Positions 7,910 to 17,424 of a stretch of 64,000 nt of DNA are shown here, piece after piece. Source of the DNA: Camelus ferus (taxonomy: Eukaryota); assembly GCF_009834535.1 (NCBI RefSeq), contig NC_045696.1, positions 77,068,001 through 77,132,000 on the forward strand, read 5' to 3'. The position numbers and the translations under genes were made by a program. Under the pieces are notes generated by a model. It had not been told where the DNA came from, did not search any database, and saw only the letters and a list, made by a program, of their open reading frames with translations. Each line of letters begins with the position of its first letter. Positions within the stretch are counted from its first letter, which is position 1.

Positions 7910-8076
7910 GAGGGGCTCACCATGAAGCTGGGGTGCTCATACTTCAGGTTCTCTCACTTGACCTGCACCTTTCAAGTTGCTGAACTTGATTTTGTGTTAG
8001 TCCTTTTGTGTTCTTTAACCGAAAGGAACTCCAAATTGTACAAGCTTCAGATCCCTAAAGACTGAGTGCACCTCTG
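7910..8076 (-). mobile_element. MER53-like hAT MITE
   Basis: CCAAATTGTACAAGCTTCAGATCCCTAAAGACTGAGTGCACCTCTG resembles the reverse MER53 terminus. Confidence 0.6.
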
Positions 8077-10949
8077 GATAAGGTGAACATATTGTTTGAT
8101 TTCAGGGAATCATTGAATAGTTTGAACTTTCTTTGGAAAACTTCAGGCCACTAAATACATTTGTCACAATCTCATCTAGTAATTATCAAATATTTTGTGT
8201 TTTCTCCTTAATCATAGGAGGCAAAGTAATTGGAATCCACATTATTAAACTGAAAAAGATGTCTGTTTTAGTACTAATCAGGCTTGACAACATTTTGTGT
8301 ATCCAATATGAGATGTAAATTGATATCAGTCATTTTTATACAAAAATGGCAGTGGTGCTAGATTCTGGTATTATTCTTACCTCTCCATGTTTATCTAAAT
8401 CCTTTAATCTTTCAACTTGAGAGGTAACAGGTGCATTTTAGTAGATGTTATGTCATACGTAATTCTTCCCCTTAAAAATTTAACTTTACAAAATGCTGGT
8501 GATACTTAGAAAAATAAATTGTTCTGTGTCCTTCAAACATAACATAGAGATCAAAACTTAAAAAGCACGATGAAAAGCTATACCAAGTAATTGATCTGGC
8601 TCTAAGTGCTACAAACTGTTTCAACTTTGAGAATAAGAGGTCTTTAGATGCTATCACCTATAATTAAGGACTCAAATGACTACCAATACAAACAGCATGG
8701 GTTTCAGGTGCACTCTTGAGAAGTAGTCACTACTGCATTGGATTTACCAAGACCACGTCTAACGTTTGGATATCAGTGGTGGCTTAAATCCAAATTGTTC
8801 CATTGGGAATCTTGGTAGGTGGGCAGGTAAATACAAATTTAAGGGCTTGCAATTTCAGGCAAAGACACTTGTTTGGATTCTTGGATTTGGGTATGAATAT
8901 TTAATTATATACTTACGTATTATAATTAAATAGTAGAGATTTGTGAATAAAATGTGGATCATCTATTTAGCATTAAAGTCAATGGAAACTTTTGCTCACA
9001 AAGAACAGATGACATAGGCACTGAAATTGGCTAGAATTTCTTAGGCATTTTCTCTGAGTCTTTATGCAAATCCAGTTAAGGGTAATTATAGCTGATATAG
9101 TTACTTCTCATAATACATTACCTGTACTTTTTCTGTAGCATTTATTACCAGTCTGTTTATTAGGTGTCTCCATATCAGGTTTTTCTCTCCCATGCCATTT
9201 TAAGATCTTCCAGACAGAGCTTGAATCTGAATGCTCCTTTTAGGTCCTTCATTGCACCTTGAATTGTTGGTTTTCAGTGGATTGCTCTTAAATAAATCAA
9301 CCTTCTGTTCAGCTTCGTGGGAGTAAAATTGAACAGACTTGCATTTGTGTATAGAGAACATGGAGCTGAATTCTTTCAGCAGGTAAAACAGTCACTGATA
9401 ATGAGATATGTACTTAGCACTGGTAAAATCTCCTGGTCACTAAACGTATTTAAGACCAAAGCATGGGAATGGTAAAGACTTAGACAGTGTACATATCTGT
9501 TCAATGAAACAAAGTAAACTGAGAGAAAAAGCATCCGTTTACCTGTACTGGTTCGTTCCTACGTTCATTTATTCATCATTCACTTGTTGCAAATTTGTGA
9601 GGCACCTGCTGTGTGCAAATGCTCTGAAAGGCACCAGAATCGGCATGTTGAATGACAAGTGCTCAAGGCTCTTAAGGAGACCGCAGCATGGGAGTCAGAT
9701 TTTCTACTAACACCCACAGTTTAGGAAAAAAGAAAAAGTTCTATCCAGGTGTTTGCTTACATTATGATAAAAATAAGTTTAAACATAGTTGAACGGCCTT
9801 CTGACTGAATGGACTAATTTGTCCGATTGTTAGTCTCTATATTGATAGACAAACATACACCCCCTCCCCAGGCTGAGACTAATCAGATTGTGATGGAGAT
9901 GATATTGGGCCACTTGACCCCTTGTAGTTCCCAGAAACAGCCATGAAAAACAGAGAGGCGCTTGGAATGCCACTCTAACACTTCAGATACAGGTAGGCTT
10001 GTTGTTATAGGCACAAGCCAGTTGGAACAACGAGTATGGCCAGAGTTGAATTTAAATTAACCTGACCGAGTTAATTTCACAGTTCTATTTACCCCTGTCC
10101 TAAAGGCCTCTTCTTACAGCAGAGTGGTTTGCATCTTGAGAAAGTCGTTCCATTCTCAGCCAGCTTTTAACATGTTGAAAGAAGAAATAAGAAGGAAATC
10201 GGGTTACATACTAAAATTTTTAATTAAAAATTAATATTTGTCAATATTTAATTAGTAACTTAATTAATTTACCAATATATTTCCTATTAATAATCCCAGT
10301 CTTAGCATCTCAGTAAGTTGGAATAAAGGGATCCTTAAAGAGCATCTAGTCCTGTGGTTTCCGTGCTGCAGCCTGTGGCTCTCAGGGGACTCTCAGGGTT
10401 GTGGTGTGACGTCTGCAGTTCCATGTAGACACCAGTCGCTTTCTTAATGTCTCACGTTCACTATTTCTCACTAGTTTTCAAACCAATTTAGATGCTATTT
10501 TGAATAGCGTCAAATGGAGTTATTTTAAAGTGTTCCTGAAATCTTAAGAGTGATTTGACAATACTTTCCTAATCATTAGAATGTGAAGGCTATTGGCAAT
10601 CCTGTGGAGAAGATAGTTTGTGAAAGTTTTAAAATATGAAAGGAGTAAATATCTGCACTATAGATCTGGCCAAATCTTCTCATTTTAGGAAGGTAGCAGG
10701 TAAGTGCCTTTTTCAAGGTCCCGGTGAAAGGTAGTGGCAGGTCCTGTATAGAGGGACCTGCGTTATTCTAGGTCTGTCTCATATAAATGCAATTGAGTAC
10801 CATTCTGAAAGGATTGTTATGCTCAGTTAAGCCTTTGAAACCTCAAGACTATGCTGAGACTTGGGGGATAAGGTCTGACCTTCCCTGGAGGTCATTCCTA
10901 GAGACAACAACCAGAAAGTATCTGGAAAAGTCATAGTAAAGTCTCTAGT

Positions 10950-11122
10950 ATAGAGTTTATCAATGTGTGACCCAAAGAACTGGCATTAAGGTCTCCTAGG
11001 ATATCTGTTAAATACAAATTTATAAGCACCACTCAGTCCTACTGAGTCAAACTTTCTGTAGATTCTCATTTTTACTTATCTCTCTAACAGTCCTTGTGAT
11101 CACTGAAGTTTGAGGACTGCTG
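10950..11122 (+). mobile_element. MER5A-like hAT-Charlie MITE
   Basis: CCTACTGAGTCAAACTTT...CACTGAAGTTTGAGGACTGCTG resembles the MER5A body and 3' TIR. Confidence 0.7.
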
Positions 11123-11173
11123 TGCTATTGGGTGAAAGAGAAGAGTTAAACTCACTCCCTCAGCTTCGACTTT
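11102..11173 (+). repeat. Left copy of a 72-bp direct repeat (putative long target-site duplication)
   Basis: ACTGAAGTTTGAGGACTGCTGTGCTATTGGGTGAAAGAGAAGAGTTAAACTCACTCCCTCAGCTTCGACTTT; 67/72 identical, ungapped, to 13865-13936. Confidence 0.95.
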
Positions 11174-13241
11174 TTAAAAGATTTTATTTTTTATTGAAGT
11201 GTGGTTGATTTATAATGTTAGTTTCAGGTATACAGCAAGGCGATTCACTTATACATACATATATATTTCATATTATTTTTCCATAGCTTATTACCAGATA
11301 TTGAATATATTTCCCTGTGCTATACAGTAGGTAGGTCCTTATTGTTTATCTATTTTATATATAGAAATATGTATCTGTTAATCCCCAACTCCTGATTTAT
11401 CCCTCCCCCACACATTCCCCTTTGGTAAACCACAGTTTGTTTTCTATGTGAGTATACTTCTGGTTTATCAATAAAATTTGTATCTTTTAAAAAAAATTTC
11501 ACATATAAGTGATATTATATGATATTAGTCTTTCTCTGATTTACCTCACTTAATGTGATAATCTCTAGGTCCATTCATGTTGCTGCAAGTGGTATTATTT
11601 CATTCTTTTTATGGCTGAGTAATATTCCATTATGTATGTGTTTACATATGTATATATACACATATGTATATACACACATGCACACACATACATACCACAT
11701 CTTCTTACCCAGTCATCTACTGATGGTCATTTAGGTTGTTTCCATGTCTTGGCTACTGCAGATAGTGCTGCTATGAACATTGGGGTGCATGTATCTTTTT
11801 GAGTTAGAGTTTTCTCTGGATATATGTCCAGGAGTGGGATTGTTGGATCATATGGCAACTCTGTTTTTAGTTTTTTAAGCAGCCTTCATACTGTCTTCTG
11901 TAGTGACTGCAACAATTTACATTCCCACCAACAGTGTAGGAGGGTTCCTTTTTCTGCACACCCTCTCTCGCATTTATTATTTGTAGACTTTTTAATCACG
12001 GCCATTCTGACTGGTATAAGATGATACCTCATTGTAGTTTTGATTTGCATTTCTCTAATAATCAGCGATATTGAGCATCTTTTCATGTGCCTGTTGGCCA
12101 TGTGGATATCTTCTTTGGAGAAATTTCTGTTTAGGTCTTCTGCCATTTGATTGGGTTGCTTGTTTTTTGTTTTTGTTTTTTTAATATTAAACTGTTTGAG
12201 CTGTTTGTATATTTTGGATATTAGTCCCTTGTGAGTTACATCATTTGCAAATATTTTTCCCATTCTGTAGGTTGTCTTTTTGTTTTGTTTATGGTTTCCT
12301 TTGCTGTGCAAAAGCTTTTAAGTTTAATTAGGTCCCATTTATTTGTTTTTGCTTTTGTTTCCTTTGGTTTAGGAGACATGCAAAAAATAAGGCTGCAATT
12401 TATGTCAAAGAGTATTCTATCTATGTTTTCTTCTTAGAGTTTTATAGTATCTTGTCTTCCATTTAGGTCTTTTAACTCAGTTTGAGTTTATTTTCGTATA
12501 TGGTGTTACAGAGTAGCTGTCCAGTTTTCCCAGCACCACTTTTTGAAGAAGCTGCCTTTTGTCCATTGTATATCCTTGCCCCCTTTGTTGTAGCTTAATT
12601 GATCATAAGTGTGTGGATTTATTTCTGGACTTTCTATCCTGTTCCATTGATCTGTGTGACTCTTTTTTTTGTGCCAGTACCGTACTGTTTTGATTACTGT
12701 AGCTTTATTGTATAGTCTGAAGTCAGGGAGTGTGATTCCCCCAGCATTGTTCTTCTCTCAAGATTGTTTTGCTATTTGGGGTCTTTTGTGTTTCCATACA
12801 AATTTTAACATTTTTTTGTTCCAGTTCTTTGAAAAATGTCATTGGTAATTTGATGGGGATTACATTGATTCTGCATATTACCTTGGATAGTATGGCCATT
12901 TTAACAATATTGATTCTTCCAATCCAAGAACACAGTACATCTTTCCATCTGTTTGTGTTGTCTTCAGTTTCTTTTATCAGTGTCTTAGTTTTTGGAGTAT
13001 GGGTCCTATGCCTCCTTAGGTAGGTTTATTCCTGAGTATTTTATTTTTTTGATGCGATGGTAAATGGGATTTTCCCCTTAATTTCTTTATCTGCTATTTC
13101 ATTATTAGTGTATAGAAATGCAGTTGATTTCTGTACATTAATTTTGTATCCTGAAACTTTACCACATTCATTGATGAGCTCTGGTAGTTTTCCGGTAGCA
13201 TCTTTAGGATTTTCTATATATAGTATCATGTCATCTGCAAA
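11174..13241 (-). mobile_element. LINE-1, 5'-truncated (ORF2 from the RT FADD motif to the C-terminus, 3'UTR, decayed poly(A)); frameshifted and dead
   Basis: ORF 13041..13289 contains [14 protein letters not shown]...GYKINVQKS (L1 RT). ORF 11886..12311 contains [17 protein letters not shown]...[11 protein letters not shown]...HCWWECKL (L1 ORF2 C-terminal Cys-rich region). T-rich tail at 11174-11192. Confidence 0.97.
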
Positions 13242-13325
13242 GTCAGTCTGTGAAGAGGATAATAAGACAGTAGACATTTTTCTCACCAAGCTTGGAGAAA
13301 AATTGATCTAGCCTTATCTTATTTT

Positions 13326-13491
13326 ATAGCTAATAACAATAAGCTATGAAACATTTTGGAGCACTTAGTGTATGCCTAGCACTGTCCTAAATACTTCATG
13401 TATATTTTAACTTTCACAACAACCCTATGAGGCAGATGCGGTTACTAGCTCCACTTTACAGATAAGGAAATCAAGACATATGGAGATTATG
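13326..13491 (-). mobile_element. MIR fragment inside the composite insertion
   Basis: CACAACAACCCTATGAGGCAGATGCGGTTACTAGCTCCACTTTACAGATAAGGAAATCAAG matches the reverse MIR core. Confidence 0.85.
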
Positions 13492-13500
13492 CTATATGCA

Positions 13501-13856
13501 TTTTTTTAACTTATAGGAGAGATTTATTTGAAGAAATACTACAACATATAAAAACTACATAAAGTTTAATTTCCACTCATGCAGTGGTAAATTTGATATA
13601 ATGCATAATAAAAAAATTTTGAAGTCCAAAGTGCGAAAAGTACTGCCCAGTTTGATCACTAAGTCAAATTAGTTGATAAGCAAACCTCACAGAACAGCTT
13701 CGTGTCAGCCAAGGCCACAAACATCGTGTACAACACATTTGAACTGACAGATCGACACATTAAAAATACAACAATATCAGTGCACGTTGAGGATCCCTGG
13801 TACCAGAAACAAGGGCAGTGGGAGGGCAAAACTCATTCTTGGTAGTCTCCTCCTTG
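13501..13856 (-). pseudogene. DNMT1: 5'-truncated processed (retro)copy of the DNMT1 mRNA 3' end: last ~8 codons, entire 3'UTR, short poly(A)
   Basis: The minus strand reads AAG GAG GAG ACT ACC AAG AAT GAG (KEETTKNE; cf. DNMT1 C-terminus KEEEAAKD*). It continues TTTTGCCCTCCC...GTTTCTGGTACCAGG...TGCACTGA...TTTGTGGCCTTGGCTGACACGAAGCTGTT...GCTTATCAACTAAT...TATGCATTATATCAAATTTACCACTGCATGAGTGGAAATTAA...TTTCTTCAAATAAATCTCTCCTATAA, collinear with the mammalian DNMT1 3'UTR as I recall it. AATAAA is at 13523-13528 (minus) and the A7 tail at 13501-13507. Confidence 0.88.
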
Positions 13857-13864
13857 CTGAAGTG

Positions 13865-13936
13865 ACTGAAGCTTGAGGACTGCTGTGCTGGTGGGTGAAA
13901 GAGAAGGGTTAAACTCACTCCCTCAGCTTCCACTTT
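13865..13936 (+). repeat. Right copy of the 72-bp direct repeat (putative long target-site duplication)
   Basis: ACTGAAGCTTGAGGACTGCTGTGCTGGTGGGTGAAAGAGAAGGGTTAAACTCACTCCCTCAGCTTCCACTTT, followed by AA (TTT/AA). Confidence 0.95.
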
Positions 13937-14500
13937 AAGGCATCTGTTGACTGTACTTCCTGCTGATCAGTGAAAGATGGAGTCTTTCTGTATTTTCACC
14001 CTTCTACTGGGAAGAGAGGGATTTAGACAGAATCCCCCTTTCCTTGAGGTCGTGCAAGGACACACGTGGCCTGAGAACATGAGAGTAAGCTATGCCTTGC
14101 AAGCCAGGTGATCTAAAGCCAACATTCTCCACACTGTTTCCTTTTGTTATTCCCCGACCTCCCATAAGTCTCATTTAAGTGTTCCAGATGCCTTAGCAGT
14201 GCAGGAGGAGCAAGGTATGGGCATCGTGATGGGGAATCCTCATTCCCTCTGAGGATAACTGCAGTGGAAATGAATGAGTCCCCAGGGGAGAAGGGGATCC
14301 AGGGGACAGCAGACCCATGTAGTCCAGGTGTCTGTCCAATAATTTTCCTTCCCTGTACTGACCATGAAGGATCTGTATTTATTAATTCTTTCTTTTTAGG
14401 CAAAATAGAGTTTCTTTTAAGAGGCAAGTCTGGGACAACGTATTCCCTGGTGCTCAGTCCGTGGAATCTCTTACCAGCCCATGGGAAACCATTATCTTTT

Positions 14501-14674
14501 TTTTTTTTAATTGAGGTACAGTCAGTTACAATGTGTCAATTTCTGGTGTACAGCACAATGTCCCAGTCATGCATATACATACATATATTCATTTTCATAT
14601 TCTTTTTCATTAAAGATTATTACAAGACTTTGAACATAGTTCCCTGTGCTATACAGAAGAAATCTGTGTTTTTT
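14501..14674 (-). mobile_element. Short young L1 3'-end insertion (camelid type) with an 11-bp TSD
   Basis: Poly(T), then AATTGAGGTACAGTCAGTTACAATGTGTCAATTTCTGGTGTACAGCAC...TGCTATACAGAAGAAA. TSD CATTATCTTTT at 14490-14500 and 14675-14685. Confidence 0.9.
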
Positions 14675-15589
14675 CATTATCTTTTATTATATGATGTGAG
14701 AGAAGTCATTTTTCATGTGTTCATATGTGTAAACATCTTATCACAAGAAATGGGAGGCCATTTTTTGGTGAGTTATTACTACTGTTTATCTTTCAGACAC
14801 CAATGGGAAATTTGATTCACATGAACTATAAAAGGAAGCAAAAGCCTCAAAATGGAATCCCAAAGACCTAGTGGTTTGCATTCAGTTGACTGAAATTGCT
14901 TTTAAAGAAACAACTCCTAATTGCCATTCTTCATCAAATTGTTCATTTTTATAAACTAAAGCTTTTAGACAGTGCATTAATGAAATCCAAATCAACCTAA
15001 CTGGGAACACAGGAAGCAATTAAAGTTTAGTAGGGAAGAAATGCAAGGAAATTACTGATGGTATAAGTTTGCTCTGACTTAAGGAGAAGTGCTTTCAAAT
15101 AATTGTAAGGCCTCCCAAGATAATAAACACCATCTTGCACAAATACAGTTGCTATGAAATTAACTTTCAAACCATTTAGATCCATCGTTGTCCTTTTATT
15201 CACATCCTCAAGGTGTTGGTCTAACAGAACACCAGAAAAAAATCACTCTGTTCCCCTTTTTAATGTTTATACGGTGTGAGCTAAGATTATGATAAAAAAA
15301 ATTGCAGTGGATACAGTAGGATCCTTGAACCATTTGCCGTTATTATTTTATGCAGTCAGTAAAGACCAGAGTGTGAGCAATTATCAATGAGTTCAGGTTT
15401 CGCCTGGCATGGAGTGAGTACAGGAGAACACAAACAGAAACATCCAGTAGTGTCACAGCCCCCTTCCTGCTACCTCTGCATTAACCTTTCTGCCTGATCA
15501 GAAATCATAAACGTGCCTTAAAACTTACTTTAAATGTAGCTTCTTTCTCAAATATTTTTATTCTCTTTTTATCAGGTCGATCTGTTTAT

Positions 15590-15693
15590 TCTTTTTTTTT
15601 TTTTTTCCTTTTTTTAAATCTTTTTTTGGGGGGAGAGGTAATTAGGTTTATTTATTTATTTTTAATGGCGATACTGGGGATTGAACTCAGAAC
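15590..15693 (-). mobile_element. Partial Vic-1-like tRNA-derived SINE (3' half)
   Basis: Poly(T)-GGGGGGAGAGGTAATTAGGTTTATTTATTTATT...ATACTGGGGATTGAAC is the reverse complement of the 3' half of the SINE at 20591. Confidence 0.8.
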
Positions 15694-16317
15694 ACATCTG
15701 TCTCCTATAAACATTTTATACTTGTCTCATTACACTTACTGGAATAAATGTAATACTGTACGCATTTGTATGCATATCTTATCCGAAACTATTTTCCTAG
15801 TCCCTCATGGTGAATGCCATGCCCTACCCACTTCTGTACCCCATCATGCTACTTAGCACTTACCGCTTAATAAATGGTGAACCCATGAATAAGAACACTG
15901 AGAATGAATCAAGCTTGAGTTCCAGTCTGCTTACAGGTTTGTGTCCCAAGTGGGATGACATATCTGGTGATCTGATGAGACGGACTTGTCAGAGGTCCAT
16001 TTACAGGAAGATCAAGGAGCCTCTTGGCAGAGACCTGATCATAAGGAAGGAAAGAAGCTGGCATGAGAAGCTCATTGAGAAGAAGACTTTAGTGATTGAG
16101 GGAGTGAGCTGGTGGTGAGGAGAGCATGGGGTTCGACACTATCCCAGTGCCACCTCTTACTGGACTCAAGTGTGACTCTCACTTGAATAAATATAAAAGG
16201 GCTCTTTCCCTGAAAACTCTTGAAGCACTGGGGCATCAGGCTTACTACCTGATACCCTGTAAAATGTTGAAGATCACAGGCGGGAGAGGCATTGTTCTTC
16301 CTCCCTGCACAATAGAG

Positions 16318-16569
16318 CAGCGATGGGCAAAGTGCAGTCCGTGGACTGGAGCCAGTTTATAAATCGGTCTGTGATGAGATCAGGAGCTTGAATCATAACC
16401 TAAATCGACCATGTCAATGAGCACACTGTTTAGTTTAGCTGACATTTTTCTTTTGATGATAGTTACATGTTCTTGATGAAGGAGCAAGGATGTTCATTTG
16501 CATTCTGGCAGGACCTCCTTATTCTTCATAACCAACAGTTTGTGGACTGGCTCTTTTGAGAAACACTGT
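16318..16569. mobile_element. Palindromic hAT-Charlie non-autonomous element
   Basis: CAG...CAAAGTGCAGTCCGTGGACTGG...GCACACTGTTTAGTTTAGCTGAC...GTGGACTGG...TTTGAGAAACACTG; Charlie-type termini. Confidence 0.6.
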
Positions 16570-17424
16570 AATAGAAAGCCATGTTGCTTTGATATCTCCT
16601 GGGTCCCAGAGCACCACTTATGGTGGGAGAAGATACTAGTAGCTGTACTCATGAGGGGATTTACATGGGAGGAAAGGGCATGGTGGTTCCCAGCAAGAAC
16701 TGTGGTACCCAGTGGAGCAGCAGAGGCATCAGGTGAGTTTGGACTGGTTTGTGAGCACATGTGAAACATCTCCTGGGGCCCCTCTAATGTATTTGAGGAG
16801 TCATTTGTAGCAATATGAAGTTATATATGAGGAGATGGGAGCAAGAACCAATGGAATGTGTGTTAGCACTTTGGCTTCTTACGATCTTTTGTGACAGAGC
16901 TTCTAAGGTTGACTTTTTCTCCAGGGGTTCCTCATCTTCCCCTGGTAGCATAGCACCAAGGAATGCCCAGAGGGTGCACTTGCAGAGATTGAGGAAGGTT
17001 TTTAGAATAGGGTGATGACAAAAAATATGAGTGAAGATAGGAGCAGTAAGTAAGAGTAGCTAATAGAGTAAATGAATGGAAGTGGAAATGTGAGAGAAAT
17101 CTTGTACATTAGCATGAAAAATAAAAATTGAATTAAATCTATAATTACCAGCCATTAGTTTTTGTGTGTACTTTTGCAACTCAAGAGTATTTGGCACATA
17201 GTAAGTACTTAGTAATACTTAATAAATGTAATGAAATGACCACACAAATGGATTTGGATAGTTGAGTTTGGATAGACAAAAGGGATTAAGTAATCCTTGC
17301 AGATAATCATGGTTATTTATCTAGACTGTTAAGTTAGAGCTTGGCATTTATTGCATCTGAATAAGAGTACTTGATTGCTGTTTTTGTAGTGACCCCAGAA
17401 ATAGTCAAATACTGGAAACCCAAG

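Follow-up and report, generated by a model that had tools for sequence, protein, structure and literature searches.

Chimeric retrogenes that arise by template switching of the reverse transcriptase (RT) of a long interspersed element (LINE) are established, one account (PMC2104539) describing 33 chimeras of two parts and a single fungal one of three parts, which has 14-bp repeats. The fungal tripartite chimera is the Magnaporthe WEIRD-MgSINE-MGL, for which double template switching is given, and the same account lists a pair of mouse B2-U6-L1 triples, which have repeats of 15-16 bp, and a pair of human triples in which no repeats can be recognised, and cites the work of Buzdin and colleagues on bipartite U6/L1 chimeras (PMC2104539). 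Law and Burns described 17 human L1 chimeras with mRNA or long non-coding RNA, consisting mostly of first exons and a near full-length L1, and discussed template switching, which they favoured, together with RNA ligation and trans-splicing as possible routes to them (PMC13174262; 10.1101/2025.02.02.635956). Their chimera filter accepts duplications of 7-20 bp (PMC13174262). In this work, we analyse a composite retro-insertion located at positions 11102-13936 of a 64,000-nucleotide stretch of Camelus ferus DNA (assembly GCF_009834535.1, contig NC_045696.1, positions 77,068,001 to 77,132,000 of the forward strand), which is called the window in what follows. The composite consists of the 3' end of a DNMT1 mRNA, a copy of a piece of a unique genomic locus and the 3' half of an L1, all being inside one pair of direct repeats, and its best explanation is one event of L1 target-primed reverse transcription (TPRT) with two template switches, to which we assign a probability of about 0.7.

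The whole composite is bracketed by two direct repeats of 72 nt at positions 11102-11173 and 13865-13936 (all coordinates are window positions), to which no strand is assigned and which are identical at 67/72 positions and enclose 2691 bp, with the antisense L1 3' end following directly after the left copy. A repeat search within 10500-14500 gave this pair as the single long direct repeat. When the left flank together with the repeat (10900-11173) was used as a query against the 2.09-Gb assembly, 2 candidates and 2 places were obtained, which are the query itself and the right copy. Since the genome search gives only these two places, the 72-mer is no dispersed repeat and no chance match: it does not derive from a dispersed family detectable in the genome, and the similarity is far above chance. 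A dispersed-repeat origin is thus rejected by the occurrence of just two copies assembly-wide. At the right end, at 13934-13938 on the plus strand, which is the primer strand, the right copy ends in TTT and is followed by AA, giving CACTTT/AAGG with the nick at 13936/13937, while after the left copy come TT and the antisense L1 end. The position of TTT/AA fits the strand and the side that are predicted by TPRT for a minus-oriented insertion. The consensus of the L1 endonuclease is TTTT/AA. The nick consensus is also given as TT/AAAA (PMC13174262). The sequence-only reading, which was made before this analysis from the letters of the window, had described two 72-bp direct repeats bracketing 2691 bp, with the right one ending in TTT/AA; both descriptions hold, and all of its coordinates are correct to within a few bases.

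When read on the minus strand, i.e., as the reverse complement, the 5' part of the composite represents a DNMT1 mRNA 3' end of 349 nt (minus 13856-13508), in which the stop codon is preceded by 10 codons and followed by the entire 3' untranslated region (UTR) up to the cleavage site. Its identity with the final exon of a gene located on the contig that we label C22 is 89.6% over 347 columns. With minus 13501-13864 as a query, 18 places were found in the genome including the query itself, 18/18 candidates having been scored, and the best non-self place is C22:20616692-20617035, with 90% identity. The exons just upstream of this match resemble solved DNMT1 structures (E 1.5e-57), 26/26 distinct PDB sequences matched by the C22 exons being named DNA (cytosine-5)-methyltransferase 1, and they match the Pfam family DNA_methylase with 29.8 and 25 bits, the cut-off being 22. 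Because its upstream exons match both the DNMT1 structures and the Pfam family, the C22 locus is, as judged by homology, the genuine DNMT1 gene. In the alignment to C22, the window copy starts in the last exon at CAAGGAGGAG, 10 codons ahead of the stop, spans the 3' UTR with its AATAAA signal and extends to the cleavage site, where it is followed by seven A's (A7; minus 13501-13507). These A's are missing from the C22 gene, where unrelated sequence continues, and at least 3 of them are templated by neither source locus; A7 is the remnant of the poly(A) tail of the DNMT1 mRNA. With an untemplated A7 at the mRNA cleavage site, the DNMT1 part is RNA-derived. That 13856-13501 represents a DNMT1 3' end with A7, as was claimed from the letters, is therefore borne out by the match of 13501-13856 to the final exon of the gene on C22.

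Between the DNMT1 part and the right copy of the duplication there are 8 extra nt (minus 13864-13857), which form a near-repeat of the last 7 nt of the duplication and which match neither the penultimate DNMT1 exon nor the target. The penultimate exon, the sequence of which is different, is thus rejected as their source. Note that 5' extra nucleotides are present in 14.6% of 5'-truncated human L1 insertions (PMC2912911). At this junction, the target reads GATCA-CAAGGA just past the duplication, and the DNMT1 part also starts with CAAGGA. It is because CAAGGA is common to the target and the DNMT1 start that BLAST lengthens the repeat to 83-86 nt, with the gapped similarity extending over 11091-11173 versus 13851-13936 (90%). 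The likeness of 11091-11101 to 13851-13864, beyond the 72-mer, lies in the common TCCTTG (CAAGGA on the minus strand), a motif with which the DNMT1 part opens as well (its first 6 nt), and owing to this shared motif the duplication can also be read as one of 83-86 nt with a small rearranged patch. It is also noted that L1 duplications much longer than the usual ones arise in cell-culture assays.

The middle piece (minus 13242-13500, 259 nt) comprises the 3' two-thirds of an ancient repeat, which we take to be MIR, and about 110 nt of adjoining unique sequence. The name MIR is taken from the sequence-only reading rather than from a repeat library, and it fits the pattern of the genome matches. 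With minus 13242-13500 as a query, 28 matches were obtained, consisting of the query itself, two adjacent blocks on a contig that we label C4 and 25 others. The 25 others are scattered, 55-150 nt long, 71-84% identical and confined to query positions 12-170, a distribution typical, as far as sequence similarity tells, of an ancient interspersed repeat. The two C4 blocks have 88% identity over query positions 2-103 and 83% identity over 96-257, and in the alignment the window piece runs collinear with the C4 locus (C4:33971889-33972249) over its full length, except for about 109 extra nt in C4. Beyond the 257 nt the C4 and window loci are unrelated. Owing to this collinearity inside and lack of relation outside the 257 nt, the middle piece is taken, on the alignment, to be a bounded 257-nt copy of the unique C4 locus. 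The sequence-only reading had called it an orphan MIR segment, which has to be replaced by a MIR part plus unique sequence copied from the C4 locus, with 83-88% identity. Because the piece has neither an A-tail nor a duplication of its own, it could not have retrotransposed alone, and because inserted sequence is present on both of its sides it is not native DNA. As to whether the MIR extends further 5' in C4, 1/7 MIR-bearing loci aligned 45 nt past the junction, and the 150 nt upstream, used as a genome query, gave only itself, results that are suggestive at best. We also observed that the extra nucleotides of about 109 nt in C4 (L004:1659-1758, C4 about 33972047-33972146) lie inside its MIR and are similar to the 3' tail of an L1, with 80% identity to window 11184-11268; in all likelihood the donor later received a very short L1 insertion there.

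The 3' part is a 5'-truncated and decayed L1 (minus 11176-13241), running from the FADD codons of the second open reading frame (ORF2) to the end of the 3' UTR, as seen from the translation and from the copies of its family. The minus-strand translation from 13244 gives DFADDMILY near its start, and the first 67 L1 residues match positions 152-193 of the 205 positions of the Pfam family RVT_1 with E 2e-05 and 24.8 bits, which is under the curated threshold of 29.6; three further stop-free L1 stretches gave no Pfam match. The query 12950-13300 had 5199 candidates in the genome, and scoring of the best 40 gave 39 non-self copies that are 85-89% identical. In most of these 39 copies the homology starts at 13241 (query position 60), the range being 13247-13228 (query 54-73). 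The best L1 frame contains 25 stops in 690 positions, with the longest open stretch being 143 amino acids. Within the ORF2 remnant, 11631-11694 is a TA/TG-rich, partly palindromic simple sequence, which looks like a microsatellite expansion within the L1. At the 3' end, a T-run and then A's terminate the related copies, and in the window copy TCTTTT precedes 5 A's, 3 of which could equally be the start of the duplication. The poly(A) remnant of the L1 (minus 11174-11175) thus has 2 A's, or up to 5 with the initial AAA of the duplication. It had been claimed that the L1 runs from the FADD codons to its poly(A); the FADD start, at 13241, stands, while the poly(A) is reduced to merely 2-5 A's, three of them being shared with the repeat.

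The DNMT1 part, the middle piece and the L1 are all co-oriented on the minus strand, as had been noticed from the letters, and at each junction there is a microhomology of 4-6 nt. At the junction of the poly(A) with the middle piece, C4 reads CAAAATTTGGAGCA and the window reads AAAAAAATGCA, the overlap being AAAA(T). Where the middle piece meets the L1, a CTG.C / ACT.AC patch of 3-6 nt is common to C4, the window and the L1 copies. Such short junction microhomologies fit template switching or microhomology-mediated joining, whereas RNA ligation needs none. Direct repeats of at least 7 nt were found neither around the L1 alone, nor around the middle piece alone, the DNMT1 part alone or the middle piece with the DNMT1 part, and the flanks of the L1 plus the middle piece share only a trivial TTTTTAA; the earlier statement that the DNMT1 piece has no separate target-site duplication (TSD) is thus confirmed at this repeat length. 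Moreover, the middle piece is reached beyond the A-tail by 0/17 other DNMT1 places in the genome, which all end at 13501-13521, and at the corresponding borders of the C4 locus both a DNMT1 copy and this L1 are missing. Since neither inner junction recurs in the genome, there is no master copy, and a master locus, a segmental duplicate or a read-through source in the present genome is rejected. A U6/L1 chimera was considered as well and is rejected, because an Rfam scan of 8000-17000 gave 0 matches at the gathering score, with no U6 small nuclear RNA copy at the 5' side.

We take as observed how the composite is built, which loci its parts come from, that untemplated A's are present, that the duplication is unique and where the nick site lies, and we propose the following pathway. 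The L1 endonuclease would nick the plus strand at ...CACTTT/AAGG (13936/13937), and the resulting T-ended 3' OH would prime on the poly(A) of an L1 RNA, with the RT then copying about 2.07 kb up to the FADD codons. At the CTG.C microhomology the RT would move to an RNA from the C4 locus and copy 257 nt of it, and at the AAAA(T) patch it would pass to a DNMT1 mRNA, at its poly(A) tail, and copy 349 nt. The end of the cDNA would then be joined to the target with the 8 extra nt and the nearby 6-nt CAAGGA match, and a break of the second strand 72 nt away would give rise to the long duplication. In this pathway the middle template would be an RNA, the events would follow each other in the order just given and all of them would belong to one event. 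That a single TPRT event began on an L1 RNA and ended on DNMT1 mRNA was already suggested from the letters, with the templates being switched once or twice, and the suggestion is supported with the number of switches now being two, because the middle piece is a separate copy of C4.

The divergences of the parts are also consistent with a common arrival. The copies of the duplication differ at 5/72 positions (6.9%, 95% interval 2.3-15.5%), there are 32 mismatches in 258 columns (12.4%) between the middle piece and C4, and the DNMT1 part differs from the gene at 32/343 positions (9.3%). Pairwise Fisher tests on the three values gave p = 0.29, 0.65 and 0.23, and the comparison of the parts, which had been suggested with the sequence-only reading, thus finds them mutually compatible, with no significant difference. 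After polarisation with 16 other DNMT1 retrocopies, 18 of the DNMT1 differences are window-specific, 13 are gene-specific and 1 is ambiguous, giving a window-specific change of 18/343 = 5.2% (3.1-8.2%) since the insertion. This value fits half of the pairwise values of the other parts and half of the 11-15% divergence between the L1 and its relatives. With the usual mammalian neutral rates, the insertion would be tens of millions of years old. In addition, 20/23 listed public sequencing runs, which carry three species labels, contain 0.69-0.76 of the sampled words of 10700-14400 (3.7 kb), and one run with a fourth species label contains 0.50 of them, these 21 runs coming from 9 studies; the word shares across the species labels agree with an age of tens of millions of years.

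Several points weigh against a single TPRT event with two switches. The duplication, with its 72 nt, is far above the usual L1 duplication, the length of which peaks at 14-16 bp (PMC2912911). The A-tail of the L1 has only 2-5 A's, and the divergence of the duplication (6.9%) is nominally below that of the middle piece (12.4%), the difference being non-significant. As to the putative RNA origin and strand of the C4 piece, 119 frames of at least 75 amino acids in the 60 kb around it gave 2 Pfam matches, both of L1 type, with no host gene among them. Finally, the simultaneous arrival of the parts is inferred, and the support for the assembly consists of the word shares of the runs.

These points have to be considered together with the other explanations. 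One of them is that the RNAs, three or two in number, were joined before the reverse transcription, by RNA ligation, by aberrant splicing or trans-splicing, or by read-through, the last requiring a now-lost allele with a truncated L1 just downstream of the C4 piece, and that the joined RNA was then retrocopied by one TPRT. The same product would be expected, with one duplication, co-orientation and an A-tail at the L1 end only; ligation and splicing routes have been proposed for L1 chimeras (PMC13174262; preprint 10.1101/2025.02.02.635956), and the C4 piece ends just before a polypyrimidine tract and AG. On the other hand, neither window junction has a splice donor or acceptor, a poly(A) remnant lies inside the chimera, the 4-5 nt junction microhomologies suit switching better than ligation, and the present C4 locus carries no L1 at that point, which together make the joining of RNAs beforehand unlikely. 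It could also be supposed that end joining or microhomology-mediated copying repaired a TPRT intermediate of L1, or else a staggered break, with a free DNMT1 cDNA fragment and a stretch copied from C4 DNA being captured as filler. The extra nucleotides and microhomologies at the junctions as well as the unusually long duplication could be brought about in this way, Y-branched intermediates whose repair proceeds through microhomology-mediated end joining (MMEJ) are discussed in PMC2912911, and the RNA origin of the middle piece is putative. Yet under random capture the co-orientation of the three parts has a chance of 1 in 4, and the DNMT1 part meets the middle piece exactly at the poly(A) tail, as expected for a jump to the 3' end of an mRNA, so that we regard such a repair patchwork as distinctly improbable.

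Serial independent events, namely the insertion of an L1, the retrocopying of DNMT1 and the earlier presence or the transposition of a MIR segment, with the 72-nt repeat arising from one of them or being unrelated, would not be surprising as such, in that retro-insertions within or next to one another are very common and the small duplications of old insertions decay, with 0/16 other DNMT1 copies having a statistically clear duplication. They are nevertheless very hard to reconcile with a middle piece that is a bounded and non-native copy of C4 having neither an A-tail nor its own duplication, with the lack of inner direct repeats, with the DNMT1 A7 directly abutting the C4 piece and with the compatible ages of the parts, and we consider them very unlikely. 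Least probable of all is an artefact of the assembly that joined unrelated repeats: the word shares of 0.69-0.76 in the 20 runs with three species labels and of 0.50 under the fourth, drawn from 9 studies, speak against it, and a diverged duplication, junction microhomologies and matching ages are unlike a mis-join.

Concerning the nature of the middle template, we made a further observation at the donor. On the minus strand of the C4 locus (L004:1324-1500), a 27-nt polypyrimidine tract and CAG are present right downstream of the copied piece, and the CAG is followed by about 150 nt with stops in all frames and then by GTGAGT, which looks like an intron end and a non-coding exon. A doubtful idea is that an excised intron RNA, trimmed to its branch point, served as the middle template, with the L1 RT jumping end-to-end onto its 3' end. 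That the C4 piece stops just upstream of the 27-nt polypyrimidine tract and CAG, and that the window copy ends in a branch-point-like CTGAC, would favour this idea; the last 6-9 nt overlap the L1 homology, however, and C4 today reads CTGCC. If it is true, the locus records an L1 RT that used a debranched or lariat-derived intron as an acceptor between the L1 RNA and the mRNA tail.

As to the identity of the third template, 16 other DNMT1 3'-end retrocopies (loci L014-L029), which are 77-95% identical to the gene, are present in the genome, with the cleavage site of the window copy, A-rich tails and variable 5' ends; examples are C30:6758538-6758896, C21:17298786-17299023 and C2:21335192-21335457. 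The C30 copy is longer, ends in an A16 tail and is spliced, as the last exon junction is crossed. An automated search for duplications around the 16 copies gave 0/16 beating 95% of shuffles, the search having low power for old short repeats and a wrong 5' boundary for the copies longer than the last exon; by eye, A-rich duplication candidates can be seen at about four of the 16. Because of these 16 other 3'-anchored retrocopies, the DNMT1 mRNA seems to be a recurrent L1 template in this lineage, i.e., a frequent bystander. The suggestion that here an L1 RT captured the transcript of its own silencer is thus an over-reading, the captured part being just 10 codons and the 3' UTR. The composite bears neither on DNMT1 function nor on L1 silencing, and it is a dead fragment with no sign of function.

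The composite can now be compared with the known systems. An ordinary 5'-truncated DNMT1 processed pseudogene also ends at the cleavage site with an A-run; by contrast, the A-run in the window meets foreign copied sequence rather than a target-site duplication, and the DNMT1 part uses the duplication of the whole composite. With the bipartite U6/L1 and mRNA/L1 chimeras the composite shares a sense non-L1 sequence 5' of a truncated L1, one duplication and an endonuclease-type site. The chimeras of Law and Burns mostly join first exons to a near full-length L1, whereas the window joins a last exon and its A-tail, via a third piece, to a half-length L1, and cases like it would be missed by recent catalogues because of the filter for 7-20 bp duplications (PMC13174262). 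There is also a close likeness to the tripartite retrogenes as described in PMC2104539, which also have three co-oriented transcript copies head to tail, a 5'-truncated LINE at the 3' side and one repeat pair around all of them. They differ in that the 5' part of the window composite is the polyadenylated 3' end of an mRNA and not a small RNA or a short interspersed element (SINE), in that its middle part is a fragment of a unique locus, and in that its duplication has 72 nt as compared with 14-16 nt.

Few tripartite cases with clear flanking repeats are known according to the 2007 account (PMC2104539), and the present locus offers a clean mammalian case of what is probably a double template switch by L1 RT, with both donor loci being identifiable and the duplication being unambiguous though oversized. 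It also provides one data point on junction microhomology, on a putative non-repeat RNA as a middle template and on long duplications. The composite belongs to a known kind, the chimeric retrogenes of two or three parts that LINE template switching gives rise to, and its unusual traits among them are the 72-nt duplication and the middle template from a unique locus.

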